Part shown: one piece after another, positions 35,924 through 55,130 of the stretch
Layout of the letters: every line of letters starts with the position of its first letter
How positions within the stretch are numbered: the stretch's first letter is position 1
Source of the DNA: a virus
IMG/VR virus record: IMGVR_UViG_3300044631_002422
Location: 84,314 to 148,313 of that record
DNA: 64,000 nucleotides
Direction: 5' to 3' (one strand)
Made by a program: the position numbers and the translations under genes
Notes under the pieces: generated by a model
The model's input: only the letters and a program-made list of their open reading frames with translations
Database searches by the model: none
What the model was told of the DNA's origin: nothing

Positions 35924-35952
35924 TTTATTTACTCCTGTTGAGGTTATAGTTT

Positions 35953-35962
35953 ATTATACACA
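35953..35962 (-). promoter_or_regulatory. TGTGTATAAT putative promoter
   Basis: Recurring intergenic motif ~30 nt upstream of the ATG. Confidence 0.6.
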
Positions 35963-35986
35963 TAATATCGAATATCAATTAAAATT

Positions 35987-36901: not shown

Positions 36902-36911
36902 AACATTTTCC

Positions 36912-39668
36912 TTATATATCGTTTTTGATATTTGATTGATTAACTCTTGCTACCGGTCGTACTAAATTGGAGAATGCAGACGAATTAGTATGAGCAGACT
37001 TAGCTTTATCCTGCATATCAAAATTTGTTTTTTCAAATTTTAACTTTGGAAATGGAGGACGTTCTATTTCACTTCTTAATTTTTGTGCGCGCGCCCAAGA
37101 GTTTTTATTTATCTTTGCTATTCTATCTAAATTGTATTTTGCTAATTTTCCAAACTCTGGTGTCCAAGTATTGAATTTATATGTTGTTTTTACTCCACCG
37201 GTGGCGTCTGCTGATATATCCATACCGCTAACATAAGGACCATCACCAACAAATCTTTCGCCTATATTAAATGATGGAGCGCCAGCAAGTTCGATACTGC
37301 CAGTTTCACTTTCATGCATTTTAGCAGTGGAAACTTGAGCATAAATACTTCCAGCTATACGCAAATCCGAATAGCTTCCGTATACTTCTGGTGTGAGTTG
37401 TGATATTTCAGAAGCTTCTGCTTTTCCGTCTGGGCTATAGTTACCTCTAACTAAAATACCGTCGATTACTGTATCTTCCTTTAATGTAATCCAAGGGCCA
37501 TAATTAAATCTTTGGCTTTCTTGGGGGATTCCAAAATATGTTGGATCTAGTACATCTGGAGGAATAGCTATTTGCAAACTTTCTTTACCCGATCCTATAT
37601 ATGTTATCGGTGGAATATTTATTCCAAGCAGCATTTGGGCGACATAAGTTAATCCAAAATCTGGGGTAGTAACATAATCAAATTCTCTTGGTTGACAACC
37701 AGTTTTAAACATCACTCCAAATGTGCCTGTATTTGACCCAAAACCGTATGCATCATTTGTATACCAAAAAGATTCACCATCCGGTTGACCCTTTTTAGAT
37801 ATTACATTACCAGATGCTCTATTTACTCCCAGAGCATAATCAGAACCAAGAGGCGATAAATCTGGAGTACCACCATTTCTTCCCGCTAAAATTGGGTATC
37901 CAACACAAGCCTGCATTTTTCCACTGCCATCAAAAAATGAAGCGTCAACGGAAGGAGCATAAAGCCCATACTGTATAAAAGCAGAACTAGCTACCGACCA
38001 AGACCTCATGTAATAAGTGTCTTCAAAATCTTCTTGGGGTGAATAAATATTGTATCTTGTATTTGCGCTTTCACTCGGAAGAAAAACAAAATACTCTTGT
38101 TTGTAAGAATTGCTTGCTACGGCAGAAACAGCTGAAAAAAGTTTGTCAGACAAGGCGTTTTTCTCTTCATTCCATGCTTTGTTTGCGCGTTGCAAACTTG
38201 TGTTAACTGCGTCGTAACTATTTCCTATTCCTTGTACAAGTAAATTCAAAACATTGGCAGTAACTTCTTGCGAAGCTGTAAATGGGGCAGTGTAAATGTT
38301 CCATATCCCATTTGGCTCTTTTCTAGAAATTATTTCCATTGTTTTCCAGAATTGCCAAGACTCTTTTCCTTCAAGTGCCATTCTAATTTCAAATGGAGTA
38401 CATCTATATATTCCAAATCCAGAAATGTATATTCCTATGCCAGCAGGAGCCAATGGCGATCCATAAACAATACCAGACGAACCAACAATATTTGGATTGT
38501 TTTTCACAACGGCAGAAGTTATATTACGTTGACCCCAAACAGCGTATCCGGCAATAGCTATGTCAACAGGATTATATTCTAAATATCTAGTTCTTCTTCC
38601 GCCCCAAATAATTTTTTGTGTTACAACATCAGCTAACTCTTTACCAACATTGTAAGACATTAATATTTTATCTTTACGATTTCGTACTTCTTCAATAAAC
38701 TGTTTGATTCTATTTGGTTCTGGCGGAACTGATTTATCTACAATTTGCAAATAAATTGTTGGCTTTAGGCTATTTGGAATTTGCGCACCTCCATCTGACA
38801 ATCCATCAATTCCACTTTCTGGCTGAATACTGTAATAATAATCAAATTGATGAAACTCTGCAAGCTCTTGAAATAAACTATTCACACTTTTAACTGGACC
38901 CTGAAGTCTTAAAGCAATTAAATCTCTATCGGTCAAACCAATACCTCTATAAAAGTTCTCTAGATTAGAAATATTTAAAGCGTACTCTGTTGCAGAAGGA
39001 GAAAGTTTAGGGCCAGAATTTTGTCCAGAAAATCTGATTGGACCGCCCCAAGGACTATTATTGTATGGCTCATGTTTTATCAACAATTCAACAGCCGACA
39101 AAATACTAAGAACTGGCATACCAGAAGAATTAAACCCAGAAGACCCAAAATTCCCACCGGATTCATTATAGTTTAAACCATAAATAGGGTTTTCAAAAAA
39201 TGCAAAAAGATTGTACACATTGTAGTAATTTGTGTAAAATGAATGGAAAGTGGCAATATTTGTACTCGACTCATATTGATTATACTGATTAGCAAATAAG
39301 TCAGTGGCTCCATTCCAATTTTCTATTATAAGTTGCACACCATCCATAAGTTTAGATGGAGACTCAAGAATAATATCATATGTTCTGCCAGATGATGGAC
39401 TTTCTTTGTACGACCACCTTTGAAAGATACCACCAAAATAAAATCCGCCATATTTGAAATAACAGGCAGTGCCAGTTGTTGGAGAATTTGGACCTCCGCC
39501 AAAAAACGGATTTCCATTTGCATCTTTTTCTAAAAGAACTCCATTTGTTTCATCTTCAACTAAAGTCATTTGAAGAGTTCCGCCTTGTCCATTCACTGCC
39601 ATATTGACGGTAATATTTGATATGTAAATACCAAACATTTTTGGAACATAGCCTTTATTTATTATCAT
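36912..39668 (-). CDS. putative tail hub/central tail protein
   Basis: 918-aa ORF downstream of the tape measure gene; C-terminal GSIELAGAP...TTYKF strand pattern. Confidence 0.6.
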   Translation of the reverse strand: MIINKGYVPKMFGIYISNITVNMAVNGQGGTLQMTLVEDETNGVLLEKDANGNPFFGGGPNSPTTGTACYFKYGGFYFGGIFQRWSYKESPSSGRTYDIILESPSKLMDGVQLIIENWNGATDLFANQYNQYESSTNIATFHSFYTNYYNVYNLFAFFENPIYGLNYNESGGNFGSSGFNSSGMPVLSILSAVELLIKHEPYNNSPWGGPIRFSGQNSGPKLSPSATEYALNISNLENFYRGIGLTDRDLIALRLQGPVKSVNSLFQELAEFHQFDYYYSIQPESGIDGLSDGGAQIPNSLKPTIYLQIVDKSVPPEPNRIKQFIEEVRNRKDKILMSYNVGKELADVVTQKIIWGGRRTRYLEYNPVDIAIAGYAVWGQRNITSAVVKNNPNIVGSSGIVYGSPLAPAGIGIYISGFGIYRCTPFEIRMALEGKESWQFWKTMEIISRKEPNGIWNIYTAPFTASQEVTANVLNLLVQGIGNSYDAVNTSLQRANKAWNEEKNALSDKLFSAVSAVASNSYKQEYFVFLPSESANTRYNIYSPQEDFEDTYYMRSWSVASSAFIQYGLYAPSVDASFFDGSGKMQACVGYPILAGRNGGTPDLSPLGSDYALGVNRASGNVISKKGQPDGESFWYTNDAYGFGSNTGTFGVMFKTGCQPREFDYVTTPDFGLTYVAQMLLGINIPPITYIGSGKESLQIAIPPDVLDPTYFGIPQESQRFNYGPWITLKEDTVIDGILVRGNYSPDGKAEASEISQLTPEVYGSYSDLRIAGSIYAQVSTAKMHESETGSIELAGAPSFNIGERFVGDGPYVSGMDISADATGGVKTTYKFNTWTPEFGKLAKYNLDRIAKINKNSWARAQKLRSEIERPPFPKLKFEKTNFDMQDKAKSAHTNSSAFSNLVRPVARVNQSNIKNDI

Positions 39669-39678
39669 GTCCTAAATC

Positions 39679-41085
39679 CTAATTTGATGGTTGATTATCT
39701 GTCCATACATAGTCAAGATTGAGTGTATAACTACCGCTAATTGGATTCCAAGTTTCAGTCATATTTTCTCTGTATCTTGGCTTGACCGATGGTAGGTATG
39801 TATCAATATAAGCAAGCGCACTAGCGGTTGGTTTTGAAACTCTATTATTTTGGTCCATAGTTACGTCCAAACCTATGCTACGCTTTCTTTCGCCAGTAGT
39901 TTGCATGTCTTGAATAACCGGACCATTTGTTTTTGCAATAATTGGCAAAATTGCAACAATGTTGTTTCCGCCGTCTTCATTGTTGTAGGTAATGTTTAAA
40001 CTAACACTCGCAGCACCCGGAAATGGAACAACTCTATCGTTAAAAGTTTGTCCGATAGTTATAACACCATCTGTTCGATTGTCACTTCTTGATAAAGAAG
40101 ATGAATTGATATTGAATGTTTTTGTTCCGCCAGCAGTTACATAAAAAGTACTTGCCCATGTCGATATATTAGGTTTTATGTAAGTATTGTAAAACGCTAA
40201 AGCATTCGTGTATTTATCAACTGTTCCACCATTTAAATTCAAAGAAGACAAACCACTAACAGTAATATTTACTTCTACATTTTGCGCATCGGCAGTTTGA
40301 TCACCAGTAAAACTAAATTCTATTGTTGAAGTTGCTGGATACAAACTTGTTTGCCAAGTTGTTGTAGCGCTATAAGTGCCTTCAAGAATATCTTGACTAA
40401 TTTGAATTGTGCGATTGTATGTAGAATAACCAACTGGAATTTCAAGAGCTATTAATTGTGGCGACTTTGAAAAATCTTGAGGCACAGTAGTAATTGGGTT
40501 GGTAGATATTCTGCCTTGCACCCAAGCTTTAGCAGCAATATAACCAGAGGAACCGGCAGGAACAGTACCTCCAGAAAGACCGCGAGGTCTTCCTGTGGCA
40601 GAAAGAGTTTGTGTTATTGTAAAAATAGTTTGCGGAAGACCAGTTCCAATATCTGTATATGTTGTTTCGTCTACGCTACTTTCCCAGCTTTCAGATATAT
40701 CAAGCAAATTTGTTTTGCTTAATGTGGCTCCGGTAAAGTCATAAGCCTCAAAATTAAGTGTATAGTCTTGATTTTGAATACCACGACTTGTTTCATCTTG
40801 CTGGGCCGCTTCGGTGCTTAAAAGAAAACAATCTGTAAAAACAAGAGGAACAACACCGTTGATTGTAAGGGTTCCTATTTCCCCAATTGTTTTTGCTATA
40901 GTTTTTACTTGAGCCTGAAGGTCGCTATTTAAAATCAAAGTTCCAATTACAGTAATGCTATACTTAACGCCAAGATCAACACTGTCTTTTTTTACAGGCT
41001 CTGAATTTACACTGTATGTTGGAGATGGATTGTTTACATTTCCAATGTCTATTTGACCGCCACTATATGTAAATGTTATTGACAT
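39679..41085 (-). CDS. putative distal tail/baseplate protein
   Basis: 468-aa Thr/Ser-rich beta protein after the tape measure gene. Confidence 0.55.
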   Translation of the reverse strand: MSITFTYSGGQIDIGNVNNPSPTYSVNSEPVKKDSVDLGVKYSITVIGTLILNSDLQAQVKTIAKTIGEIGTLTINGVVPLVFTDCFLLSTEAAQQDETSRGIQNQDYTLNFEAYDFTGATLSKTNLLDISESWESSVDETTYTDIGTGLPQTIFTITQTLSATGRPRGLSGGTVPAGSSGYIAAKAWVQGRISTNPITTVPQDFSKSPQLIALEIPVGYSTYNRTIQISQDILEGTYSATTTWQTSLYPATSTIEFSFTGDQTADAQNVEVNITVSGLSSLNLNGGTVDKYTNALAFYNTYIKPNISTWASTFYVTAGGTKTFNINSSSLSRSDNRTDGVITIGQTFNDRVVPFPGAASVSLNITYNNEDGGNNIVAILPIIAKTNGPVIQDMQTTGERKRSIGLDVTMDQNNRVSKPTASALAYIDTYLPSVKPRYRENMTETWNPISGSYTLNLDYVWTDNQPSN

Positions 41086-41810
41086 TATTCGTAGCCTATT
41101 TCAAAAAGGGTTGTGGTTTTATTGGTAGGAGTTTTGATAAATAAAGTCGCTGTATTTGTGGTTAATGACCGCCCAGAAGCAAACATTGAAATCGCGGCAA
41201 TTGGATTTGTTTGTTTGATAAACAACGGAATATCTTTTCCTTTATTGAAATCTGTTTCAATATACAAAGTAGTATTTGTTGTATTCGATTGGTCGCCGCG
41301 AATGTACATCGAAATATTTTTGTTTGCAGCTGCGTACCCGCTTATATTTATCACACCCAAAAGCGACAGAGCGCCAATGTCCAAAGGGCTTGTACTACCA
41401 CCTTGAGGAATTTCTGGCGGAACAGGGCGTGTTATGAACAAAGTAGTAAGAGTATTTTTCTCGATGTAATCTGGTCCACGCATCGTCAGTGTTGCGTTTG
41501 TTGCAAACACAGTATTTGGAATGCCATTCATTCTTAAGGTCAACGGATTAGCAATTGACGTTCCTCCATAATTTGGGTCGCCATTCATATAAATTGGCAT
41601 ACTACTAGCGGAAATGCCATCCGATAATGGCAACCCAATAAATAAAGGAATTTCTGCTGACTTTGGGCCAGTAATAAAAAGGTTTGCAGTGTTAACAGTT
41701 TGATAAACAGGCCCAATAAACAAACTTATATCGCCAGAAGCATCTGGGCCTCCGCGTATTGTTAAACTTGCCGTGTTTACAGTTTCTAATCCAAATACCA
41801 TTTTACCCAC
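41085..41810 (-). CDS. putative tail protein with short LFI/LYI repeats
   Basis: Repeated (T/P)LFI and MY(I/M) strands; adjacent to the tape measure gene. Confidence 0.6.
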   Translation of the reverse strand: MGKMVFGLETVNTASLTIRGGPDASGDISLFIGPVYQTVNTANLFITGPKSAEIPLFIGLPLSDGISASSMPIYMNGDPNYGGTSIANPLTLRMNGIPNTVFATNATLTMRGPDYIEKNTLTTLFITRPVPPEIPQGGSTSPLDIGALSLLGVINISGYAAANKNISMYIRGDQSNTTNTTLYIETDFNKGKDIPLFIKQTNPIAAISMFASGRSLTTNTATLFIKTPTNKTTTLFEIGYE

Positions 41811-44800
41811 CAGCCTTGAAGTTGTTTAATCTTGAATCTAATTCTTGGGTTATTATTTCTTTTAGTTTGGGCGTAATAGCTTCGGCTATTTGGTTTTTAA
41901 GAACGTCTCCATTCTGAATATTAAATGCCAAAGTCATATCACCGCTAAATTGATGAGTCACAGTCATTCCGGCAGAAAGAGCAGCAACCAAACTATTTAT
42001 TGACCCACCAATTGTACTAAATGCTGTTATAATGTTATCAATGTTATTTTGAAAATTATCACTAAACGTATCAAAAATAGCTTGCAAAGCTCCAAAATTG
42101 AAAGAAACACCGCCGCCAGTGGCCTGACCGCCATTTTGTAAATAATTCACGCCGCCTACTAAACCTCCTCTTTTAAATCCGGGAACTTTACCTTTGTTTA
42201 AAGAATCCATATAATTTATACCGTATTTTTGTACAGCGTTTTTATTTACTACAAATTCTCCCGCGTTTAACATCGCTGGAATAGTATCTTCTTGACCAGC
42301 AACTCCACCAGAAGAATAATACGAAGGATAAAACCCTCTTGCTTCATATCTAGCGTTTTGAGCAGATGCCCTAGAATTGTATCTTGCTTGCTTAGCTTGC
42401 ATTCTAAGCATATATCTTTGCTCTCTGGTCATCCCTGCCGGATTTTCTCTTGAATCTTGAAGATTTTGTTGTTGCTGAATAGCCATATCTTGAAAATTCT
42501 TTTTTTGCAAGACCATCTGTTCAGCTTTTTGTTTAGCCATCAATTTTATTTGCTCAAATTCGAAATAACTTGGTTCTCTTTCAGATTGAGCAACAAAATT
42601 AGAGTATAATTCTTGACCAGCCTGAGCTTCAATCATAGGATCTATTTCAGTTTCGCTAGTATTAGAACTATCAACTGTAACAGCGTTATTAATATTCAAA
42701 AAGCTATTTTGTTTTTTTAACTGTTTAAATTTATCTCTTTTAGCTTTTCTATCTAAAGCAAGCTGTTTTCTTTTTTCTGATATTCTTACCTCTGCGGCTT
42801 TTTTTTCTGTTAATTTTTTCTGAGTAGACGAATAAGATGAAGATACAGAACTAGCTACTGAGGCTACACCTCCGCCAATATCATTAATAGCACCTCCAAC
42901 AGTATCTACTGCTGACGATATATTTGCGCCAATAGACTGAAACTTTTCTTTACTTGAGTCTAAAGATTGTTGTTTCATTGCCTGTATTCTTTTTTCAGAT
43001 TCAAGAGTTGCTTTTATGAAATAATCTTCAGGTATAGCTTCTTGTTTTTGAGATTTTGCTTGCTGTATTATGTTTAATAATCGGGCGTTTTCTAAATTTT
43101 CTGGAGTGGCAAGTATTTCAGTTCTTTCATTATTAGCAAAAATTTCGCCATTAATACCACGCCTTCCGGCAACAAGCTCATTGGTTGTTCGATATCCGCT
43201 AATAGTTCCTAATTTCTCCTTTTCTTTTTGAAAAGGCGTTTTGTATGTCATATCTTCAAAACTTTTCGCGACATCTTTAAATGGATTTTCTTCTGATTGT
43301 TGGTTTTTGAAATCTTTTATAGCTTGTATTCTATTAGCTAACCCAACTTGATCATAATCTGGATTTAAAAACCCAAAAGAGCCACGACGAGCATAATCTT
43401 CAGATCTTTTAAAAGCTTCTTCAAATTTCATTTTTCCAGCAACAACCTCTTCTGCCAATCCTTGATAAACTTCACCTGAAGATCTGGTGTATTGTTTAGG
43501 CGCAGTTGGACCAAGAGATGCTATTTTAGCAGCTTCAATTTCTAGATTTTTAGGATCTGGATTTCTATTTTCCATTCCCATAAAAATGGGCTGACTTTTT
43601 ACTGAAGAAATAGCATTTTTAGCCAAAGACCTAGATGTACCAAGAGCATTTTCGCCCTTTTTCATAAGATCAAAAAATCCGGGATATTTTTTTTCGCTGT
43701 CTCCTAAAATTTTAGGAAATATTGATCCAGTCTCATCGTATCTTCTAGAAAGAGCAGCTAAACCCGGAAACACTGGTTTTTTTGAACCATCTTTAAGATA
43801 ACGTATTTTCCCACCTTTACTAGCATATTGTGTTGCGCCTAAACTTTCACCGCTGTTTATGGCTTGCAACAATCCTAAATTTTTGTCAGTGGCTTTTGCA
43901 TTAACAACAAATTCTCCCGGAGTTAGCATTGCTGGAATTGTATCTGTTCCGCGCGGTTTAAATATAGAACCTCCGTTAGCCCGATAAACTGCACCACCTT
44001 CAGAAAATTTAGTGACGGGTTTGGTCTCAGACATTAGCTGAGCGTTTGCCATAAGTTTAGTCTGAAGTTCTAATTGTTGTAATATTTTTTCTTCTGTAGT
44101 TGTTTGTGTTGCCAATTCAATTGCTGTTTTTTTATCAACCCCAAAAAAGTTCACTAAATCACGCACAACAAGCTCGGTAGATAATTGCTTTCCTGTAAGT
44201 CCAGTTCCGGCAATTTGAACATCTGATAATTTATCCAATAAGCCAAAAACAGAAGCTCTTATTTCTTCTGGAAGATTTTGAGTTGTCCCGGTTTGTATAG
44301 CTGATAAAATTCCCTGTCTAGCCAAAAGAAAATCTTGTCTTGATTGTTGCCCTCCAGCAACCAAATCTTTTAATACTCCAAACGCCTGCTCTCGCGCGTT
44401 TCGTTCTTTATCTAAAGATTCTGTTAACTTATCTATTTCAGCACTGGAGTTAGCTATTTCCTGCAATGCGTCCGAAGCATCTTTGCTGGTATTTATAAGT
44501 TCCTGTTGAACTCTCAATAAATCAGAAAGTCGTTGTTGAGATGTTTGATCTAATGTAGATCTATTTTTCAAATCACTAATTTCTTTTGTAACCTGAACTA
44601 TTCTTTCGTCTGTTAATTTTTTTACTTGACCTAATTGCTGTATATTTGTAGCATCAAGAGCAATTCCGCCGCGACTAACTTGTCCAGCATTTAATTTTCT
44701 TTGACGGGACTCTTGCTCGACTCTTAATCTTGCAGCAGCCACGCTTTTATTGTTTGCTCTTGCTAAAATTTCCGCTCCAGATGCAACAACATTATTGTAT

Positions 44801-47800
44801 TTATCTATATCAGAAAGTTGGCGTTCTCTAAGAGACTGCTCTGCTTGTAACTGTTGTTGACGTAAATTTAGCTCTTGTTGCTGTGTTGATTGAAGTTTAT
44901 TTATAACGTCAGCGGCATCTTTTGATTGTTGACTTAACGGAGATAATATATTTTGCAATAAATCTTCTGTTATTACTGGATTTTCTCCGGCTGCTTTTGT
45001 TAACTCAGCCGCAATATCATCTAAAACTTTTTTACCAGCATCTCCGCCACCAAAAGTTTCTGATGTTAAACCTATATTTTTTAATATTTGCTCAGCATTA
45101 ATAGATTCGCCCAAATCAAGAGTTTTATTAAGAAGTGTTTCATTAGCTTTAGCAAATATATCGGCGGCATTGGTAAGTTGATTTGCAAATTTTATAGCCT
45201 CTGGATCTTTAGATGTGCGTGCAACTGTTTGAATATCCGATGCAAACCTTGATCTATCTGTCACTTTACTTGGATCTTCAATATTTATAATTGGTTTTAT
45301 GGCATTAGAAAGATCAGCGGCATTGCCGGAAAGAGCATCAGTAAAATCTTTTAATGCGTCAGACTGCGCTTTTATACTATTTTCTTGATCAGCTAAACTA
45401 TTCAAAAATACAGCAGTTTTTCTAGCAGATTCAGCCATTACTAATTGAGCCGCAGCTGCTCTTTTAACGGCTTCTATTTCAGATATTTTTGCTTTTTCAG
45501 ATGCGGCTATTCCGGCATCAAATGCCTTTAATCTACTGTTTGTTTGTTGAGTTATTAAATTTCTTTGTTCGTCGGTTGTAGCCCCAGATAATTTTACAGA
45601 TTGCTCTTCTTCAATGGCTTTTCTTGCGGCATCTGTTGCTTGTTTAAATAACAACACCGACTCTCGCGCAGCGGTGGTGTCTGCAAAACTTAATGATTGT
45701 GATGCGTCTTGTAATGTTTTTCCAGTTTCCTGAACTCTAGTAGCAGCAATATCACTAGCTATTTTTAAAGTTTCAAACGAAGCTTGCGCCCTTAAAGCTA
45801 TTCCCTCGGTTGTAGTCTCGCTAAGACCTCTATCCGATGCTTTTGCTCGTATTTCATCGGGAGTAAGTGCTTTTAACTCAGATTCTTTTAACCCTAAAGC
45901 AGCTGCATCTTCTGAAATTTTGGGCCTAATTTTTTGTGCTGTTTGTATTGCTAAACCAGCCCCAATTTCTTGAGCTTCTAATCTTCTTTTAATTTTTTCC
46001 GGTCCTTGTAAACCCTGCGCCGATTCAATAGAGCTTAAAGCAGAATTTAATTGAAAAGAAGCTTCTGATAGCTTGATGTTTGCTTCATAAACTTCCAATA
46101 TAGATTGGACCTCTTTTTGTCTAGCTGTATTTGCATTTTCAACAGCCGCGTCTGCGGATAACATAGCTAAACCAAACCCGCCAATTGCGCCAATAACTGC
46201 TCCTATCGCAGTTCCAAAAACAGGTACAGAACTTCCTATACTAGCTCCTAAAAGAGCGCCGCCAGCGGTTATGCTAAGAGCAGCAGCAACAGTACTGGTT
46301 TTAAATATTTCAGCAGTATATTCTCTCGCCGCCAATTCACTATCGATACTTTTCTGCAATTCTCCAGCAGCAAAATCAGACTTTCCGGTTTCGGCAACAG
46401 CTGCTAATCTTGCTTTTCTTTCTTTCTCTATTGTATCTGCTTGAGCTTTTGATCTAGCAGAAAGAAATTTCAACGCGCTAATCACGGCTATAACTGCGAA
46501 AGAAACTACTCCAAAAGCTGCCGCCGCCCGAGAACCGGCACTAGCGTTTTGAACTTTGGCCACTGTTTCCGCTTCAGTAGCTCCGGTATTTGCAACTGTG
46601 GCTACAGTATTTGTCAAAAACGACGTAACCATTTGAGTAGTGGTTCCTACTATACCAACTAAAGCAGTAGTAAATCCAGCGGTTTCTGTTATAGCCTGAG
46701 TAGTAACTGCGTCAAGTCCACTAAATTGAGCGGCTAACGCAGCGGCACTAGCACCGAGAAAAACAAAATTCTGCATAGCGCCGCCGATTTGACTTGTTCT
46801 GTTTGCGAAATCTTCTCTATTTTGCTTACCGCCAGTTGCTGCGTCTAAACCGCCTTTAGCTCTAGATGCTAAAGAAGCTTGTTTTTTAACTTCAACAGTA
46901 GTATTTTGAATTACTTGATTTAAAGCGTCTTGAGAAGTCCATCCCAAATTAACAAATTTTTTATATCTTGCAAAAGAATCTTGAAGTTGCTGTCCCTGCA
47001 TACCAACAGCTTTCAACATTCCAGCAGCATATAAAGAGTCTTTTTCAACTTGATTTAAACCAGCAGCATAAACTCCTGTATTTACACTTCCAGCGACTCT
47101 AGTTTCTTTAACTCCCAAATCTTTTCTTTGTTGGTTAGCTGCTTGTTGTTCAGCCCTTCTAGCGGCTTGGTCATTCATAGCGGCAGTAGCATTACCCATA
47201 CCCTTATCTATTTGACGAGCAGCGGCTTGCAAAGAACGGTCAATAAGTTCAGAGCCGTCGCTAATTTTATCAATATTTCTAGTAAAAGCCTTCAAAGCCG
47301 CTTCTACTATTTTTGGATCATCGGTAATATTGTCAAGTTCTGTTGCTAGTCTATCAAAGACTTGCGCATTCTTTTTTACCGCAGCCTCCAAAAGAACATA
47401 GTCTTTAGATGATAATTGCTCTATGGTTGACTGAACTGTTCCGCCAGTAGCAAACTTTTGTACACCAACCACACCTCCACTAGCATAACCAGTAACACCA
47501 TGTTTGTTCATGCGGTTTAGATTTGTGTATCCAATACTTTGAGCAGCCGACTTACTAACAACAAATTCACCGGGAGTAAGCATAGCGGGAACAGTATCTG
47601 AACCAGATATACCCCCACCAGAAGCTCGTTTAACAACTCTTTGCGCCCTTGAGCCTTTTGTGTTAAAAGCATCCAGCGCGGGCTGCTTGCTGCCGCCTTG
47701 AGTAAATATCATATTGGCAAGCGGAATACCAAATAACTGATTTAAATACTCTCCGACACCATCAACGCGGCGAGACTTGGTTATAATCTTTAGATTATTT

Positions 47801-50562
47801 GGATTGATTTGACCGCTTTGAATGGCCGATTGCAATGTTTTTCCAAATTGTGTTAGTGGAGAAGATTTAATATCTTGTAGTCTGCCCGCACCAACAAAAT
47901 ACTTTTTCAATACTTCTTCTTTTGCTTTTTCGGTTTTAGCTTGGGCGTAAGCTTTATCGCCAATTGTTCTAATTAATGTACGGTCTACGTCAAGAGCGCC
48001 GCCGCCAGCTTTGATAATATCTTCAATATTTTTTGGATTTGGAAGAATCGCCCCTTTGGCATTTTCTAATATATCGTCAACCAAAGGATAGTTACTTGGT
48101 TTTACACCAGTGCCAGAACTACCTTTATTAAATTTTTGTACACCTTCAAGATTTCCGGCATTAATATCATTAATGGTTTTATTAATAACTCCGTCAGCGC
48201 CAGTAAATTGACCTCTACTCCTTTTTGCCTCGGCTTTAACTAAATTTTGAATAGCTTTATTTTCAAAGAGAGTTTCTAATTTAGTTTTATTTGCCCCAAT
48301 ACTAGAACTAGGAAAATCAAAACCGGACCTACCGCCAGCGGGTATTGCTCCAGATAAAGCCCCTATCATTCCTTCAAATAAATAACCAGACATAGTTGAT
48401 ATAATTTGCTGATCTTTCAACAAGTTGCCAGATACTTTTTTCATCAAACTTTCGTCTGTATCGATAGCCGGATTAACATCTAATAATTTGGCGCTTTTGA
48501 CTAAACTAACGGTATTTTCAATACCTGCCTTTATACCTAGTTTAGATCCCGCATCTAGAATTCTGCTGTAAGCAGCAGCTTTAAGCGTTTTTCCATTTGC
48601 AATACCTCTTCCGCCGGGATAAAATGTTGGAAATCCAGCACTTGTATCCAAAGTCGCAGTTGTCCCATCTTTGTACTGGAAAGTTGGGTTACTTTTTGGT
48701 CTATAAATATCATCCTGACCTTGAGATGGTTGGAGTATAAAACCGCCAATTTGTCCCGGCAAGACTTTAAATCTCGGACCCTTTTTTGTAGAACCTTCCC
48801 CTTTTGCTTCTTCTGTCTTTTTTATTTCTTGAGAAGCTTGCTGAGTAGTATATTTCTTTTTGATAATACCATCTGCTAAATTTGGATTATTGGCAATTTT
48901 TTGAGCATCTCTATCTGATAAATTTATATTTTGTTCACGATATACAGATTGCACACTTTGCCAATTTCCTTTATCGCCATATAAAGCCCTTTTTCCAGTA
49001 ACAATACCCCCGGCCATATACCCATTAGCATTCATTTGTGCCAATGTACCAGCGCCAATTTTGTTTACACTACTTTTACGAATAACAAATTCGCCCGGCA
49101 TAAGCATCGCCGGAACAGTGTCACGATTTCCAGTACCGGGAACCATACCGCCACTAGCAAACTTGCTCGCGCGAATACCGCTTGGCGCACCAGCAAATCC
49201 ACGCAAAATACCAATACCACTAGCCAATCCCTGACCAGCTTTTAGGGCAAATAAAGTTGTAAGAAGTGGAAGAACTGGTTCCAAAGCTTTACCAATGCTG
49301 ATCATAGCATCAGCAAGTTTAAGCGCTCCAGATATAATACTTCTAAACGAACCACTATCAACTAAACTAGCAATAAACTCATTGAATTTTTCTTTGGTTT
49401 TGTTTATTTGTACTGCTAAAGCTTGTTGCGATGTTTGAGCATCAGCAGCAATTGAACCACTTGCATTTTGAGCAACATTTAACGCCTGTTGCGCCACTGA
49501 AAATTGATTGATAAGAGGAATAACCTTACCAATTTGACGATAACCACCAAGCTCTTCCACAATAGCAGAAAATCTAAAATCACGCGGATCTAAAGATGAT
49601 AATCCTTCAGACAATCTTTTGACAGCTTCAAAAGCTCCAACAAATTGTCCTTCTGAATTTCTAAGCTCGACACCCAATTCCTTCAAAGCATCAACGGTAT
49701 CGCCTCGCTGGATACGAGTAAAAATAGTTCGCAAACCAGTACCAATCGTTTCGGCACTTTCGCGCGTAGTGGCACGAACACTCGTAAACAAAGCAATAAG
49801 CTCGTTTACGCTTCCGCCAGCATTTGAAAATACACCACCAACTTTACTAATAACATCCACAAGGTCGGCAGATTCAACAGCAAAAGCTTTAGAAACAGCA
49901 TTGATGGAATCAAGACTTTGTTCTAAAAATTTAACATCTCCACCAGCCCTTGCGGCTTCGCCACGAAATTGGTTTATAAGTGAAATAGCACCTTCCGTAG
50001 TTGACTGAAGATCATCGAACGATGCCGCTAAAGTTGTTTTCGCAAGAATATCAAGTGACTTTTTAGTTTTATCAGCACTCAAACCAGCTTGTAACAATAT
50101 ACGGGCAGTGCCAGCAAGTTGGGCAGAAGAAACACCTAAAGAAGATGATAGTTTGCGAATTTCATCGGACGTACCGGAAACTTCACGCATTGTTTGTCCG
50201 GTGGTCTGAGATATTTTGACCATTTCATATTCAAAGTCAATCGCGGCACTCGTTGACTTCTTGAATGCGTTAACGAGCGATAATAAACTACCAGTAGCAA
50301 CAGTAATGACACTGAACCTTCTAGCGGATTCAGCCAAAGTTCGATTTAATTCACCAACAGATTTTGTTGAACTTTGCGCGTATTTATTGAATTGACCCAT
50401 TTGCTGATTAGCTTGAGCCAAAGAGCGTCCATCTATTATGGCCTTGAGTTTTATATTACCAAGCGGAGCAAGTTGTTTTTGTACTTGCGAAACCACTTGA
50501 TTGATATTACTTTGATTGGCCTGTAACTGTAATTGTGCCGTTAAATTAAACTTCTGTGCCAT
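41803..50562 (-). CDS. tape measure protein (2919 aa) with repeated PAMLxxGEFV motifs and inserted domains
   Basis: TP901-type N-region (FEYEMVKI...RESAETIGTGLRTIFTRI), Ala/Gly-rich hydrophobic segments, long helical stretches, four DT(V/I)PAMLxxGEFV motifs. Confidence 0.9.
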   Translation of the reverse strand: MAQKFNLTAQLQLQANQSNINQVVSQVQKQLAPLGNIKLKAIIDGRSLAQANQQMGQFNKYAQSSTKSVGELNRTLAESARRFSVITVATGSLLSLVNAFKKSTSAAIDFEYEMVKISQTTGQTMREVSGTSDEIRKLSSSLGVSSAQLAGTARILLQAGLSADKTKKSLDILAKTTLAASFDDLQSTTEGAISLINQFRGEAARAGGDVKFLEQSLDSINAVSKAFAVESADLVDVISKVGGVFSNAGGSVNELIALFTSVRATTRESAETIGTGLRTIFTRIQRGDTVDALKELGVELRNSEGQFVGAFEAVKRLSEGLSSLDPRDFRFSAIVEELGGYRQIGKVIPLINQFSVAQQALNVAQNASGSIAADAQTSQQALAVQINKTKEKFNEFIASLVDSGSFRSIISGALKLADAMISIGKALEPVLPLLTTLFALKAGQGLASGIGILRGFAGAPSGIRASKFASGGMVPGTGNRDTVPAMLMPGEFVIRKSSVNKIGAGTLAQMNANGYMAGGIVTGKRALYGDKGNWQSVQSVYREQNINLSDRDAQKIANNPNLADGIIKKKYTTQQASQEIKKTEEAKGEGSTKKGPRFKVLPGQIGGFILQPSQGQDDIYRPKSNPTFQYKDGTTATLDTSAGFPTFYPGGRGIANGKTLKAAAYSRILDAGSKLGIKAGIENTVSLVKSAKLLDVNPAIDTDESLMKKVSGNLLKDQQIISTMSGYLFEGMIGALSGAIPAGGRSGFDFPSSSIGANKTKLETLFENKAIQNLVKAEAKRSRGQFTGADGVINKTINDINAGNLEGVQKFNKGSSGTGVKPSNYPLVDDILENAKGAILPNPKNIEDIIKAGGGALDVDRTLIRTIGDKAYAQAKTEKAKEEVLKKYFVGAGRLQDIKSSPLTQFGKTLQSAIQSGQINPNNLKIITKSRRVDGVGEYLNQLFGIPLANMIFTQGGSKQPALDAFNTKGSRAQRVVKRASGGGISGSDTVPAMLTPGEFVVSKSAAQSIGYTNLNRMNKHGVTGYASGGVVGVQKFATGGTVQSTIEQLSSKDYVLLEAAVKKNAQVFDRLATELDNITDDPKIVEAALKAFTRNIDKISDGSELIDRSLQAAARQIDKGMGNATAAMNDQAARRAEQQAANQQRKDLGVKETRVAGSVNTGVYAAGLNQVEKDSLYAAGMLKAVGMQGQQLQDSFARYKKFVNLGWTSQDALNQVIQNTTVEVKKQASLASRAKGGLDAATGGKQNREDFANRTSQIGGAMQNFVFLGASAAALAAQFSGLDAVTTQAITETAGFTTALVGIVGTTTQMVTSFLTNTVATVANTGATEAETVAKVQNASAGSRAAAAFGVVSFAVIAVISALKFLSARSKAQADTIEKERKARLAAVAETGKSDFAAGELQKSIDSELAAREYTAEIFKTSTVAAALSITAGGALLGASIGSSVPVFGTAIGAVIGAIGGFGLAMLSADAAVENANTARQKEVQSILEVYEANIKLSEASFQLNSALSSIESAQGLQGPEKIKRRLEAQEIGAGLAIQTAQKIRPKISEDAAALGLKESELKALTPDEIRAKASDRGLSETTTEGIALRAQASFETLKIASDIAATRVQETGKTLQDASQSLSFADTTAARESVLLFKQATDAARKAIEEEQSVKLSGATTDEQRNLITQQTNSRLKAFDAGIAASEKAKISEIEAVKRAAAAQLVMAESARKTAVFLNSLADQENSIKAQSDALKDFTDALSGNAADLSNAIKPIINIEDPSKVTDRSRFASDIQTVARTSKDPEAIKFANQLTNAADIFAKANETLLNKTLDLGESINAEQILKNIGLTSETFGGGDAGKKVLDDIAAELTKAAGENPVITEDLLQNILSPLSQQSKDAADVINKLQSTQQQELNLRQQQLQAEQSLRERQLSDIDKYNNVVASGAEILARANNKSVAAARLRVEQESRQRKLNAGQVSRGGIALDATNIQQLGQVKKLTDERIVQVTKEISDLKNRSTLDQTSQQRLSDLLRVQQELINTSKDASDALQEIANSSAEIDKLTESLDKERNAREQAFGVLKDLVAGGQQSRQDFLLARQGILSAIQTGTTQNLPEEIRASVFGLLDKLSDVQIAGTGLTGKQLSTELVVRDLVNFFGVDKKTAIELATQTTTEEKILQQLELQTKLMANAQLMSETKPVTKFSEGGAVYRANGGSIFKPRGTDTIPAMLTPGEFVVNAKATDKNLGLLQAINSGESLGATQYASKGGKIRYLKDGSKKPVFPGLAALSRRYDETGSIFPKILGDSEKKYPGFFDLMKKGENALGTSRSLAKNAISSVKSQPIFMGMENRNPDPKNLEIEAAKIASLGPTAPKQYTRSSGEVYQGLAEEVVAGKMKFEEAFKRSEDYARRGSFGFLNPDYDQVGLANRIQAIKDFKNQQSEENPFKDVAKSFEDMTYKTPFQKEKEKLGTISGYRTTNELVAGRRGINGEIFANNERTEILATPENLENARLLNIIQQAKSQKQEAIPEDYFIKATLESEKRIQAMKQQSLDSSKEKFQSIGANISSAVDTVGGAINDIGGGVASVASSVSSSYSSTQKKLTEKKAAEVRISEKRKQLALDRKAKRDKFKQLKKQNSFLNINNAVTVDSSNTSETEIDPMIEAQAGQELYSNFVAQSEREPSYFEFEQIKLMAKQKAEQMVLQKKNFQDMAIQQQQNLQDSRENPAGMTREQRYMLRMQAKQARYNSRASAQNARYEARGFYPSYYSSGGVAGQEDTIPAMLNAGEFVVNKNAVQKYGINYMDSLNKGKVPGFKRGGLVGGVNYLQNGGQATGGGVSFNFGALQAIFDTFSDNFQNNIDNIITAFSTIGGSINSLVAALSAGMTVTHQFSGDMTLAFNIQNGDVLKNQIAEAITPKLKEIITQELDSRLNNFKAGG

Positions 50563-50633: not shown

Positions 50634-51617
50634 TTATTCGCCCGCAGAGTCGTTTTCAGCCAAAACCTTTTTCTTTGTTTTTTTGGTTTTTTCCTCGGAA
50701 ACATTACCTTCGGCTACAAGATTTTCTTCTTTTTCTAAATCTTCTTTTTTGGCAGTAACAATAGGGTCGCCATTATCATCCAAAAACGGCTTGCGAACAG
50801 CTTTGTCTTTTGAAACCCAACTTTCTTCGCCGTCTTCGTCAACCACTTTGACAACTTCCTGACCGTCTCTGTTTACATAGTAACGATCATTTGGATCTTT
50901 ATTTGCTTCGCCTTCTGGAGTGCGATATGCAATAAAACGCCCATCGTCGTCAATTAATCGGCCATCGATATCAACAGTATGACCCTTATCATTGATGAGT
51001 GACAATTCTTCATTGACAAATTCAAACTCACGCAAAAACTTGTTTTCCGTAAGCTTGTTATCATAATCAGGATCAAGCCCATAAATAATGCTTGCCAACT
51101 CAGAAGAAGCTTTTACAACCCAAGGTTGATCACCACTAGAATCAAAATCTTTTTGAGTTTGAAAATAAGGCCCATTGGTATTTGGGTTGATCATGCACAA
51201 TCTAACCAGTTCGGTAAATCGCGCGTTGTCAGCTTGACCTTCAACAGTGTTTTGATCAAGTATATTTCTTTCTGCAATAAACTCACGAAACTCAAATCGA
51301 AGACGACGCAAGTCCAAGGCAATTTGCTTGGCTTCAGATAACTTGATGCCGCCGCTTTTCAAAATTTGCTCTTTGGCTTGAATTTCATTGATATAATTAT
51401 CATTCTTTTGCTGTTTTTCTTTGTTCCAAATTCCCTGATCGGTCATGTAGTCCGAAAGTTTTTGCCGCAACAAAGCCCCAGAGTCAAGGGCTTTTCTAAA
51501 AGCCTTGTTGTACTCAATTTGAGAATCTCGGTACTCTTGAGGTCCGGGAGTTTTCAGCTTGATCTTTACAGTGTTTCCGTTTTTGTCCAACGACTCGATA
51601 ATGTTTTCTTTATCCAT
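50634..51617 (-). CDS. hypothetical protein, possible tail assembly chaperone
   Basis: Lies between the tail tube and tape measure genes; GGAGA RBS before ATG 51617. Confidence 0.6.
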   Translation of the reverse strand: MDKENIIESLDKNGNTVKIKLKTPGPQEYRDSQIEYNKAFRKALDSGALLRQKLSDYMTDQGIWNKEKQQKNDNYINEIQAKEQILKSGGIKLSEAKQIALDLRRLRFEFREFIAERNILDQNTVEGQADNARFTELVRLCMINPNTNGPYFQTQKDFDSSGDQPWVVKASSELASIIYGLDPDYDNKLTENKFLREFEFVNEELSLINDKGHTVDIDGRLIDDDGRFIAYRTPEGEANKDPNDRYYVNRDGQEVVKVVDEDGEESWVSKDKAVRKPFLDDNGDPIVTAKKEDLEKEENLVAEGNVSEEKTKKTKKKVLAENDSAGE

Positions 51618-52002
51618 CTTGTGTCTCTCCTGATTGATTAAAATCATTTTTTACTGGTAAATTAATCTGATATCTTTTTCTTTGAATTTCATATCCTGAA
51701 AATTCAGCTTCTAAACTTCTGATTTGGGTATTGCCCCTATCTAAGATTATTGCACGAACTTCATCGTATATGTCCTTCATTTGTTTTTGCTCTTGAGTTA
51801 TTTCTTCTTCACTTTCAAAGCTCCAAAGAAATCCTAATTTTTTTTCAATTGTGTCTAGCGCCCCAATCATCGTTGTTTGTATTTTCTTTTTGCAAGATTT
51901 AAACAGCGAATCTTTTGATACTTCTTTGCTCCTTTCCTCACGAATGTTTTTCAAGTTGATTGATTTTTTAAGAAAGTTGTTGTAATCTTTATCATCCGAC
52001 AT
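51610..52002 (-). CDS. hypothetical protein
   Basis: 130-aa helical ORF in the tail operon. Confidence 0.65.
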   Translation of the reverse strand: MSDDKDYNNFLKKSINLKNIREERSKEVSKDSLFKSCKKKIQTTMIGALDTIEKKLGFLWSFESEEEITQEQKQMKDIYDEVRAIILDRGNTQIRSLEAEFSGYEIQRKRYQINLPVKNDFNQSGETQDG

Positions 52003-52003
52003 A

Positions 52004-53056
52004 TTATCTTCCTTTTGACTTTATTGCACTTCTTGCAGAATTAACTGCATTCATCATTCTTTCCTGCTTGACATCCGATAAATCTTTGTGATGTATATTT
52101 TCAGATGAAGCTCTAATTTCCCGTTGTCGTTCTTGTATTATAGCTCGCATATGGTCATTATTTAACGAATAAATATCTTGAGCTTCTTCTTGAGAATTAG
52201 CAACAACAAAAATCTCTTGAGAATTTTTGATTTTAGGGTTGCTGATCAAATCATCAGTTTGTTGTTTTATTTTATCTTTTTCGTGCTTTCTTCGTTGTTC
52301 AATAAACCACCCATCAAGACAGTCATCATCTTCAATAACTTCTTCTTTGGGCGATTCTGGGTTTTCAAAAACACCATCATACATTTGTGAATATGAAATA
52401 AGTGCAAGTTGGTTTTGGTCAAGATATACAGATGGTTTTCCAAAAACATCGCCGCGTTTTTTAGAGCCATTCCACATTTGACGCCACGGTGAACTTCTCG
52501 CAATTTTACGAAACTCAGAAGCATCAATTGCAGCAGACGAATATTCTTCCAAAATATTTTGGATATTTATATCTCTAAAATCATAGTTTTTACCATCAAT
52601 ATTTTTGGTGGTTTGTTGCAAAATCCAACATCTACGCATAAAATTAGCAACACCAGAACATGTTGTATGATCAAATTGTTTTTTCTTGTGGGCTGTTGTT
52701 GCCCTGTCAATTTCTGCCACTCTTATCATTCGTTTAGCGTTTGCTAGTTCCTTTTTTCTAAAAAATGCTTTGTATGCATTAACCTTTAGATCTTCTATCT
52801 TTTTGTCCAACTCTAGTACATATTTGTCATCGAGCGGAGTCCATAAATCATATTCGATCAACATCGCCAAAACTTCTTGTTCTGTATAACATCCAGAAAA
52901 ATAAGCTTTTTTATATGCTTGATCATAAATCTCAAACGATTCTTCCATTATATCAGAAGAAGGTTCGTGTATAAACAAAACAAGATCGCCCACCCGAATG
53001 CGTAGGCGACCTTGAATTATTCTATTTAAAATCTTTTCACAGTAAATTTCATCCAA
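52004..53056 (-). CDS. hypothetical protein, possible tail assembly chaperone
   Basis: 350-aa ORF right after the tail tube gene; IEDDDCLDGW motif. Confidence 0.6.
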   Translation of the reverse strand: MDEIYCEKILNRIIQGRLRIRVGDLVLFIHEPSSDIMEESFEIYDQAYKKAYFSGCYTEQEVLAMLIEYDLWTPLDDKYVLELDKKIEDLKVNAYKAFFRKKELANAKRMIRVAEIDRATTAHKKKQFDHTTCSGVANFMRRCWILQQTTKNIDGKNYDFRDINIQNILEEYSSAAIDASEFRKIARSSPWRQMWNGSKKRGDVFGKPSVYLDQNQLALISYSQMYDGVFENPESPKEEVIEDDDCLDGWFIEQRRKHEKDKIKQQTDDLISNPKIKNSQEIFVVANSQEEAQDIYSLNNDHMRAIIQERQREIRASSENIHHKDLSDVKQERMMNAVNSARSAIKSKGR

Positions 53057-53080
53057 GTCCTAATCCTTAATGACTAAATT

Positions 53081-54082
53081 TTAGCCACCACCATCTACAA
53101 CAAGCAGAGAGTTATAGTTACTGTAAGAGTAAGTAACAGTAGCATTTCCGCCACCGGTATCGCCACCCGAGTAAGAAATCGAAGTCAGCTTGTTCTTGGT
53201 TCCGAGACTGAGAACAGTTCCTGCGGTATCTCTGATTGTGATAGTATCACCAACTCCGGGCTGATTCTTACCAGCACCCGAAACGCTCTTGAGATCGCCC
53301 GAAGTTGCAATGACTTCAAACTCGCAAGTAACTTCAATTGGGAAACTAGTAAACTTAGCATAAGGCCCAAAACGTCCCAATTCAAGAATATTTTCTTGAC
53401 CAAAGTCAGCACTAACACTGATACTTTGAATATGGAAATTATTATTGCCCGCGAGGTCGCCTCTTTGTTCTCGAACCAAGGCTGGAAGAGTTGAAGCGCC
53501 CAAGTCAACATTCACGCGACGAACAACACCCGAAGCTGGCGTATCGGTATTGAAACCGGTCGCCGGATTTCCGTAACGTCCAAATGCAGTTTGTGCGGTT
53601 TGGTTAACATCGGCATTCCAAAACTTGTCGTTACCAACAAGCGTAACCGATTCGGTAGCATTTCCATCAACACTGTAACTGTATGCTACATTACTGATAT
53701 ACATACCCGAATTCCAGCATACGTTTTGTGGTACGCCAGTAGCGTTTGAAGTGCTATCGCTATAAATACCCACATAAACATCGCATCGCGATTTTGCGGC
53801 AGCAACGAGATCAGTTTTGCAAGCACCATTACTTGCAAGGTTATAAATAAGTTTTTCGCCGTCGATAACCTTTTCTAGGCTAACGTCAACGTCGGTAATA
53901 TCTTCTACGTTTTCATAAAGTTCAAGCTGGCCAAGTTCAAAAACCTGATCAAGCGTGAAAGTAGAATTCATACCAACGCTTTGCAAACCGCGCACAGTAT
54001 TCGCAGCACTAACAGCAGTTCCTGTTGGTGCTTGAATAATTACCGCTTGGCAAGCGTAAAAAATTCTGTCATTTCTTGGCAT
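53081..54082 (-). CDS. major tail (tube) protein
   Basis: GLQSVG...VFELGQL...; internal duplication ILELGRF; gene position; strong AGGAG RBS. Confidence 0.7.
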   Translation of the reverse strand: MPRNDRIFYACQAVIIQAPTGTAVSAANTVRGLQSVGMNSTFTLDQVFELGQLELYENVEDITDVDVSLEKVIDGEKLIYNLASNGACKTDLVAAAKSRCDVYVGIYSDSTSNATGVPQNVCWNSGMYISNVAYSYSVDGNATESVTLVGNDKFWNADVNQTAQTAFGRYGNPATGFNTDTPASGVVRRVNVDLGASTLPALVREQRGDLAGNNNFHIQSISVSADFGQENILELGRFGPYAKFTSFPIEVTCEFEVIATSGDLKSVSGAGKNQPGVGDTITIRDTAGTVLSLGTKNKLTSISYSGGDTGGGNATVTYSYSNYNSLLVVDGGG

Positions 54083-54123
54083 TTAAAATTCTCCTATAGA
54101 ATTTAGTCCTCTGGTAAGGCACT

Positions 54124-54135
54124 ATTATATACACA
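54124..54135 (-). promoter_or_regulatory. TGTGTATATAAT putative promoter
   Basis: Recurring intergenic motif ~40 nt upstream of the tail tube gene. Confidence 0.55.
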
Positions 54136-54143
54136 AAAATATG

Positions 54144-55130
54144 TTAAACTGGCCCAACTTCTGTTTTGCAGCGGGCAACACCCATATAAAGATCAACAGA
54201 AAGCTGCGTAATATTTTCGGCTCTGGATTCATAAACCCAGCATTTACGATAAGGATAATTATCTACTAAATGAGGATAAAGTCCACTAGCGCGAGCATGA
54301 CCCCTCAATTCACGCTCTTTTCCATTTTCAAAAGTAAATGGAGAAACGCCACTTTGGGCAACTTTGGTGCTATCGAAAAGCGTTAAAGTTCGATCATTTT
54401 GGGCAACAATAGTATCAATTAAGTTAACAGCTTCCCAGTGGTTTTCGGCCATTACATAAAACAAAATATCGCTGTTTATCCACTGACCGCCGCCAAGTTG
54501 ATACCCTTTGGTTTCACGGGCTGGAACAACTTCCACGGCAATAGCCGGTAATTGAACGCGAGTTTCGCCCAAGCGAACCCATCCGCCAGAACCTTGAAAT
54601 TGAAAATTTGCTTCATTTCTGAAAGAATTTTGTTGAAGTTGGCGAAACCATGAAACACCTTCGGCGGGAAGTGTTTGCACACGTTTGTGGCTATATTCTA
54701 CCTGAACATTGCTATTGGTTGATTGGGCAGTGTCAAATACAATGCGGCCAAGTGGGTAATCGATATAAAATGGTTTTGTGACATTGCCTGTGGCATAAAA
54801 CGTGCCATTAACATAAACACCAGAAATATTGACTGGTTGCTGAGCGACACCATCAACGTTGCCGCTACCTTCCCACACCCAGTTTTGGCGATAACCTTCC
54901 CAAACACGACCAGCCGTATAATTTGGAGTATCTACAAGTCTCAGCTTGTGACGGTCGCCGCCATAAATGCCACTTTGTGGAATAGATATAGTGTAAAAAC
55001 CGCCCTTGTCAAGCAAACCCCAATCGTAAAAATTTACAAAATTATCAAGCAATATTTCTGACAAAGTTGCGTCTGTGGCCTTTTCTATTCCCGCCGTTAA
55101 GTTTAATTTTGTGTGCGATCCTCCGGGCAT
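54144..55130 (-). CDS. putative tail terminator/completion protein
   Basis: Position before the tail tube gene; VQLPAIAVE...YQLGGG. Confidence 0.55.
   Translation of the reverse strand: MPGGSHTKLNLTAGIEKATDATLSEILLDNFVNFYDWGLLDKGGFYTISIPQSGIYGGDRHKLRLVDTPNYTAGRVWEGYRQNWVWEGSGNVDGVAQQPVNISGVYVNGTFYATGNVTKPFYIDYPLGRIVFDTAQSTNSNVQVEYSHKRVQTLPAEGVSWFRQLQQNSFRNEANFQFQGSGGWVRLGETRVQLPAIAVEVVPARETKGYQLGGGQWINSDILFYVMAENHWEAVNLIDTIVAQNDRTLTLFDSTKVAQSGVSPFTFENGKERELRGHARASGLYPHLVDNYPYRKCWVYESRAENITQLSVDLYMGVARCKTEVGPV

Follow-up and report, generated by a model that had tools for sequence, protein, structure and literature searches.

A giant tape measure protein of an uncultured phage with repeated lambda-type modules and apparently exchangeable inserts

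Tail tape measure proteins (TMPs) are generally regarded as rulers and as builders of a channel. Several are known to carry additional domains. The TMP of mycobacteriophage TM4 includes an embedded peptidoglycan hydrolase motif (PMC1796659). That of Thermus phage P23-45 (gp96) is a giant of 5,002 amino acids (aa) fused to a virion RNA polymerase that acts in the cytoplasm at infection (PMC10770324) and, because it carries such an enzyme, demonstrates that proteins can be delivered by a TMP. TMPs may also be processed: lambda gpH is matured to gpH* plus gpHC (PMC12617516). Here we describe a TMP of 2,919 aa (P0001) encoded on the minus strand, at positions 41803-50562, of a 64,000-nucleotide (nt) stretch of viral DNA. 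This stretch, called the window below, is the final 64 kb of a 148,313-bp IMG/VR record (IMGVR_UViG_3300044631_002422), which bears direct terminal repeats. Four copies of a glycine-rich module, also present in gpH, fence two inserts ('slots') whose contents have been exchanged among relatives. The original prediction presented this as an undescribed system, which was overstated: enzymes embedded in TMPs, and an RNA polymerase fused to one, had been described before.

Lambda gpH resembles P0001 in carrying the module shortly before a tip-anchored C-terminal piece, but it has a single module and no inserts, whereas the four modules of P0001 fence inserts of 443 and 467 aa. The TMPs of TM4, BirdsNest (gp30) and Douge (gp16, which has two modules) share with P0001 a non-helical domain located inside the TMP. 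For example, modules at aa 946-1006 (weak) and 1601-1663 (strong) of BirdsNest gp30 bracket an Rpf-type transglycosylase (aa 1148-1220). These mycobacteriophage inserts are known cell-wall hydrolases; in contrast, no hydrolase was found in P0001, whose inserts are unassigned or HAD-like and occupy two fenced slots with a high turnover. The enzyme of P23-45 gp96 is an N-terminal fusion with no exchangeable slots described, whereas the inserts of P0001 lie between repeated modules.

A parallel can also be drawn with polyvalent proteins. These are large multidomain proteins, codelivered with DNA, whose effector domains (including ADP-ribosyltransferases) are shuffled and which are thought to be processed into units by their own metallopeptidase (MPTase) domains; the documented case, P1 DdrB, is carried in the phage head (PMC5512222). 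The paper describing them (Iyer et al. 2017, PMC5512222) contains no mention of tape measure proteins. Polyvalent proteins carry a processing peptidase, whereas Pfam detects no peptidase domain in P0001. They also combine several unrelated effector enzymes in one protein; P0001 has one HAD-like domain and one domain without a detected fold, and one relative has an ADP-ribosyltransferase. Sle1, from actinobacterial contractile injection systems, is a TMP-related 'reconfigurable' effector with an exchangeable functional domain (PMC13277306). Its description sets it apart from P0001: it belongs to a non-phage contractile system, the domain is C-terminal and there is no gpH-type module fence. Our literature searches, whose coverage is incomplete and which are weak evidence on this point, returned no account of exchangeable inserts in a TMP that are fenced by repeats of a gpH-type module.

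The P0001 gene is a single open reading frame (ORF) of 2,919 codons without a stop, an 8.76-kb frame. PF10145 (PhageMin_Tail) matches aa 132-336 with 96 bits (cut-off 33.2) and is the only Pfam family in the entire protein; the Pfam scan found no peptidase or protease domain. The N-terminal part matches four tape measure PHROGs (4211, 1533, 167 and 28), while the unannotated phrog_35029 matches four separate stretches of the protein. The sequence is recorded on 4 contigs. A word-indexed search for relatives yielded 755 proteins of 1.6-5.1 thousand residues, and the best 120 of these 755 were analysed. Judged from its sequence, P0001 is a true tail tape measure protein, modular in build, and belongs to an uncultured phage lineage. 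Its parts are as follows.

41803..50562, minus strand: tail tape measure protein gene (P0001, 2,919 aa), from the ORF, PF10145, the TMP PHROGs and 755 giant relatives
49168..50562, minus strand: conserved N-terminal backbone, aa 1-465, including PF10145 at aa 132-336; aligned in 118/119 relatives
48991..49167, minus strand: module 1, aa 466-524 (FASGG...DTVPAMLMPGEFV...GYMAGG); hidden Markov model (HMM) score 79 bits
48097..48990, minus strand: slot 1a, aa 525-822, a variable linker plus a predicted folded alpha/beta domain at about aa 594-809 (AF2 model)
47662..48096, minus strand: slot 1b, aa 823-967, a small HAD-like domain (VIA and Foldseek on the model, invariant residues)
47431..47661, minus strand: module 2, aa 968-1044; HMM score 90 bits
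44032..47430, minus strand: central Ala-rich backbone, aa 1045-2177 (composition)
43777..44031, minus strand: module 3, aa 2178-2262; HMM score 80 bits
42376..43776, minus strand: slot 2, an orphan insert, aa 2263-2729; no match in large protein searches
42121..42375, minus strand: module 4, aa 2730-2814; HMM score 75 bits
41806..42120, minus strand: conserved C-terminal piece, aa 2815-2919, ending NFKAGG; aligned in 64-94/119 relatives

P0001 contains exactly four copies of the motif D-T-[VI]-P-A-M-L-x-x-G-E-F-V, at aa 481, 989, 2207 and 2759 (nt 49122, 47598, 43944 and 42288), in agreement with the number and positions originally given. It is the core of a longer Gly-rich module of 59-85 aa with the consensus [FY]AxGG-x5-G-x-DTVPAMLTPGEFV-x-K-S-x-V-x-K-x-G-x-x-N-L-x-x-M-N-x5-Y-A-x-G-G. 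The four modules score 75-90 bits each with the family HMM and, at this level of similarity, a chance origin of the four motif copies is excluded. The module alone has no match in Pfam. At the DNA level the four copies have in common a core of only about 40 nt, with synonymous differences, and therefore provide no long repeat to drive recombination within the genome. When module 1, slot 1 and module 2 were modelled as one chain (AF2), both modules had a pLDDT of 28-46 (that is, unfolded as a monomer); from this and from their high glycine content we infer that the modules are flexible joints.

Short pentads of the form [FYR]xxG[GS] were also proposed to punctuate the boundaries. They are indeed in excess in the TMP (15 observed against 4.2 expected), but about 9 of the 15 are the module ends themselves (FASGG...GYMAGG and so on) and so are not independent punctuation. 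The C-terminus of the protein, NFKAGG (41803-41820, minus strand), is the same [FY]xxGG element as that found at the module start and at the joint within slot 1. A terminal GG is found in 16 of the 120 relatives, and the close ones finish with FKAGG(S).

A profile built from 52 module sequences matches lambda gpH at aa 731-792 (E 1.4e-5; E 0.002 with a 4-sequence profile) and mycobacteriophage Douge gp16 at two places (E 6.6e-10). By these profile matches the TMP module is homologous to gpH aa 731-792, and the original remark that lambdoid tape measures typically carry the motif close to their C-terminus is borne out. In lambda, gpH is cleaved within a Gly-rich region and the end of gpH* is estimated at about residue 690-730; the exact cut site and the catalyst are given as unknown, and gpH residues ~690-817 are unresolved (PMC12617516). 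The homologous module (aa 731-792) thus adjoins the estimated lambda cut. For P0001 this is an analogy and counts as no evidence of cutting. In the cryo-EM structure of Douge only residues 1658-1699 of gp16 are visible, inside the hub (PMC13033339), and the module regions of both Douge gp16 and gpH lie outside the resolved maps. By comparison with these Douge residues, the C-terminal piece of P0001 is probably retained in the tail tip.

Among cultured phages, tblastn located 69 records with the module, almost all of them having a single copy. It is also found in proteins of T4-like cyanomyoviruses whose annotation is hypothetical or transmembrane (S-SM2, 7674-7817; P-TIM68, 7729-7893) and in genes annotated as endolysin (the cultured-phage records with the module include Streptomyces phage SF1, 30178-30366), and is therefore not confined to siphovirus TMPs.

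All 120 relatives carry modules, from 2 to 7 per protein, and 64 have four. The same five-part order recurs in these 64 independent proteins, which come from JGI, ENA, Logan and NCBI assemblies. We determined coverage and breakpoints by BLAST of 119 relatives against P0001 and segment statistics by pairwise comparison of the 64 four-module proteins. The starts and ends of high-scoring segment pairs cluster at aa 511-540 (94), 961-990 (51), 2251-2280 (58) and 2731-2760 (92), with a minor cluster of ends at aa 781-840. Coverage follows the same divisions. It reaches 118/119 relatives over aa 1-520, falls to about 22-32/119 over aa 530-950, lies at 22-85/119 in the central region (rising toward module 3), drops to 0-1/119 over aa 2300-2650 and returns to 64-94/119 over the C-terminal 170 aa. 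In the pairwise comparison, similarity is detectable in 100% of pairs for the N-terminal part, 24% for slot 1, 73% for the central part, 3% for slot 2 and 56% for the C-terminal part. The N-terminal backbone is 445-473 aa long and its mean identity is 63%. Slot 2 sequences form 46 clusters of which 39 are singletons, and vary in length from 0 to 1278 aa.

The closest relative, P0006, illustrates this most directly. Its backbone parts are 86%, 61% and 72% identical to those of P0001, yet BLAST detects no similarity exactly at aa 532-807 and 2260-2746; because the closest relative is unrelated in precisely these intervals, the slot contents have been replaced and have not merely drifted apart. 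Taken together, the alignments support cassette exchange at the modules, with slot contents swapped, reordered or replaced among relatives. Comparing homologues for variable domains between the motifs was the check proposed at the outset, and the slots do vary. The claim that the motifs delimit exchangeable segments stands to the extent that homology ends pile up at the modules, but slot 1 is no free cassette, its core being retained in 80 of the 120 relatives.

The inter-motif regions had been described as unlike the Ala-rich tape measure helix, and composition confirms this: the slots contain 8-9% Ala and 4-5% Pro against 15% and 1% in the central region. In detail, slot 1 has 8-9% Ala, 10-12% Gly and 4-5% Pro, slot 2 has 9% Ala, 6% Gly and 4% Pro, and the central region has 15% Ala, 6% Gly and 1% Pro. 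The central region also includes two hydrophobic, membrane-type segments resembling glycine zippers (weak Gly-zipper matches) at about aa 1342-1370 and 1424-1474. No Pfam or PHROG family matches slot 1 or slot 2, whether they are searched whole or in segments, and in the ESM Atlas the best score for either slot is 0.76-0.77, below a useful level.

Slot 1 consists of two pieces (1a and 1b) joined at FNKGS (aa 811), where relatives read QKFAAGG. This pentad lies within the zone of homology breaks at aa 781-840, marks a real joint and, as first noted, separates the two segments. HMMs built from the alignments identify the 1a core in 80/120 relatives, always after module 1, and 1b in 30/120. The two assort independently and their order is swapped in four proteins. 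Modelled alone from 16 sequences (aa 585-822), slot 1a gave a pLDDT of 82 and a pTM of 0.78. Residues G726, E730, D749, A779 and K780 are invariant or nearly so in 16-18 sequences, the (D/E)xK stretch being E778-A779-K780, and the conserved residues follow the E...D...(D/E)xK order of PD-(D/E)xK nucleases.

Slot 1b was modelled within a 596-residue chain with a local pLDDT of 70-82. VIA retrieved more than 20 HAD phosphatases (Z 7.3-5.0) over model residues 384-518, and they made up nearly all of its top rows. The best was the class C acid phosphatase 3pct (Z 7.3, root mean square deviation 3.9 over 122 aa), and others included the T4 Pnkp phosphatase domain (Z 6.6), AphA (Z 6.4) and MDP-1 (Z 5.4). 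The top Foldseek matches were all HAD, with a probability of up to 0.96 but with E 0.04 and above. An alignment of 14 sequences (50-99% identical to the window's copy) shows D858-V-D860-R-T862 as invariant (D858, D860, R861 and T862), corresponding to motif I, DxDx[TV], together with K929-S930, corresponding to the Ser/Thr of motif II. A further stretch, MIFTQGGSK, was noted. We therefore call slot 1b HAD-like in predicted fold, without classing it as a HAD member and leaving catalytic competence aside.

Relatives of slot 1 are rare outside TMPs. The search returned only one protein, P0125, a hypothetical protein of 582 aa from a Proteobacteria metagenome-assembled genome (MAG; NCBI), which is 42% identical over 83% of the slot 1 query and is probably a TMP fragment rather than a free-standing form. 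No free-standing relatives of the HAD-like domain were found at 77-266 aa, and a metagenome scan for slot 1 relatives gave 4 loci only.

Slot 2 is more isolated still. It has 0 matches at E<=0.001 among 1.84 billion representative proteins and none in viral contigs, and in its own genome it matches only itself. Weak partial similarity, to its second half, occurs in only two relatives. Its GC content (0.342) and its GC at third codon positions (0.188) are the lowest of the TMP gene (the N-terminal part has a GC content of 0.406), which fits a separate origin or relaxed constraint. A composition-based disorder scale does not separate slot 2 from folded parts.

Recognizable domains do occur in the slots of relatives. 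P0123 has an ADP-ribosyltransferase domain (PF03496, 28.5 bits, cut-off 23.4) at aa 1067-1276. It adjoins the HAD-like domain of that protein and occupies an additional slot, with modules at aa 775 and 1593 as its fence. In P0013, slot 2 contains an SHD1 domain.

We consider it fairly probable that P0001 and its relatives represent a conserved TMP backbone with module joints and delivered inserts, whether uncut or with cutting left unspecified. The modules would be flexible joints, and possibly sites of cutting or docking, which let folded or foldable non-helical domains travel in the tail lumen as part of the TMP. As infection begins, the insert domains would then leave the tail together with the TMP and enter the host envelope or cytoplasm. 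Precedents for such a payload are the ADP-ribosyltransferase in the fenced slot of P0123, the transglycosylase bracketed by modules in BirdsNest and the virion RNA polymerase of P23-45. Being conserved, the slot 1 domain would serve a common entry step rather than be free cargo. Slot 2, close to the tip-side end, which is the first to exit the tail, would be the fast-replaced and probably host-specific part; because it is replaced in nearly every lineage it is a candidate host-specificity determinant.

A number of results weigh against this proposal. The slot 1a model matches no known fold (Foldseek against the PDB, best E 1.5; VIA, best Z 4.2 and for a helical hairpin only; BFVD, best E 0.59) and none of its 16 members has a nuclease or other Pfam family. 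The absence of a match does not show that the fold is new. The label 'nuclease-like' given earlier to this segment came from the E...D...(D/E)AK order only, while a model with a pLDDT of 82 matches no nuclease or other known fold; a nuclease fold is not supported, and a negative fold search cannot exclude it. For slot 1b, the structural scores are middling (Z below 8). After the last core strand comes MIFTQGGSKQPALD; here, where motif IV (DD or GDxxxD) would be expected, the 14 sequences have no invariant acidic residue. No HAD Pfam family is found in any of the 14 members, and a profile run against PDB sequences gave only chance ClpB rows. The earlier label 'HAD-like' has moderate support from structure, where HAD folds head the lists, and DxDRT is invariant, but the domain lacks an invariant motif IV and a family match. 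The fixed position of the slot 1 core in 80/120 relatives is more reminiscent of a fixed TMP part than of exchangeable cargo. Slot 2 is without a homologue, and a globular domain may not exist there. That the modules are cut, or that active effectors enter the host with the TMP, would be argued by analogy only, from the lambda cut and from the ADP-ribosyltransferase of one relative. By our own reasoning, moreover, three copies of a folded 240-aa domain would be hard to fit into a siphovirus tail lumen. Finally, SPbeta YomI embeds SLT and M23 domains and has no module. The modules are consequently no general requirement for enzymes embedded in TMPs, and the idea that they always bracket such enzymes was dropped.

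One alternative, which we regard as unlikely, is a true polyprotein: as the tail matures, or on ejection, cleavage of the TMP at each module or next to it would give up to five products, with the slots as injected effectors. The lambda module that adjoins the gpH cut would favour it, as would the cleavage of T5 pb2 (PMC12617516), the FxxGG elements found at every domain border (and the FKAGG end of the TMP itself) and the fenced ADP-ribosyltransferase of P0123. It has to accommodate a TMP with no protease domain detected by Pfam, a GG end in only 16/120 relatives and modules conserved over ~60 residues, far beyond the needs of a simple cleavage site. A more specific form, in which the gpH-type module would itself be a self-contained processing element (an autoproteolytic site or one for a tail-maturation protease) and the giant TMPs true polyproteins whose free proteins precede the DNA into the host, is quite improbable in our view. 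If true, it would release a HAD-like phosphatase, the protein without a detected fold and the slot 2 protein, as well as an ADP-ribosyltransferase in one relative, and the same element would explain the mechanism by which gpH is cleaved to gpH*.

Alternatively, the system could be purely structural, with modules acting as docking or register elements which bind a chaperone, the tube or the trimer, and slots acting as non-enzymatic spacers or envelope-penetration parts. This we find doubtful, despite the constant position of the slot 1 core and the fact that no catalytic family is confirmed for any insert. It is at odds with the invariant DxDRT and K-S of the HAD-like domain (14 sequences at 50-99% identity to the window's copy), with an ADP-ribosyltransferase domain above the Pfam cut-off in one relative and with the transglycosylase between modules in BirdsNest. 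The same reading would attribute the variation of slot 2 to relaxed constraint, or to an evolutionary contest with host factors for entry or with superinfection exclusion, which has been reported to act on TMPs. The orphan status of slot 2, its GC content (the lowest in the gene) and its location near the tip-proximal end are consistent with this explanation, but its outright replacement between close relatives, in place of gradual divergence, is not. An artefact, the giant ORF being an assembly chimera or several genes fused by a miscall, is so improbable as to be negligible given a frame open over 8.76 kb without stops, a protein present on 4 contigs and a five-part order repeated in 64 independent relatives with four modules.

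This large uncultured TMP family (755 matches) is built to a single plan, in which a backbone that stays fixed carries repeated lambda-type joints and the inserts turn over at those joints. Should the inserts be active in the host, the tail lumen would offer a second delivery route for interchangeable proteins besides the head-packaged polyvalent proteins, used from the very start of infection, and this would matter for host takeover and for counter-defence. The module also connects the family with a question from a model phage, namely where and how gpH is cut, which could be addressed directly in lambda. The slot 1 domain, for its part, has a confidently predicted fold with no match among solved structures or BFVD models.

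The genes around the TMP add to this picture by their arrangement. Upstream are two overlapping ORFs at 51610-52002 and 50634-51647 (minus strand; 130 aa and 337 aa, overlapping by 38 nt), a layout usual for tail assembly chaperone genes with their programmed frameshift, and it is this arrangement that suggests the assignment. Three genes, of 241, 468 and 918 aa, lie downstream, and the gene order is kept in a relative (L016) from a different contig. The ten neighbouring genes (34949-41810 and 50634-55130, minus strand) have 0 PHROG matches at E<=0.001. Because of this, placement of the TMP in a tail gene block is based on arrangement only, and the lineage, in its structural module, lies very far from described phages. 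The matches that might indicate a host are MAG contigs of many phyla only, the best being a Flavobacteriales MAG at 60%, and no host can be called. A 334-aa gene at the corresponding flanking position in a relative has a faint match to Phi812_tail_tube only. In four other relatives (L017, L019, L020 and L021) the gene directly after the TMP is itself a giant of 3,182-3,819 aa, with a faint FG-GAP_2 match in 3/4; in the window and in L016 this position is occupied instead by the genes of about 240, 470 and 920 aa.

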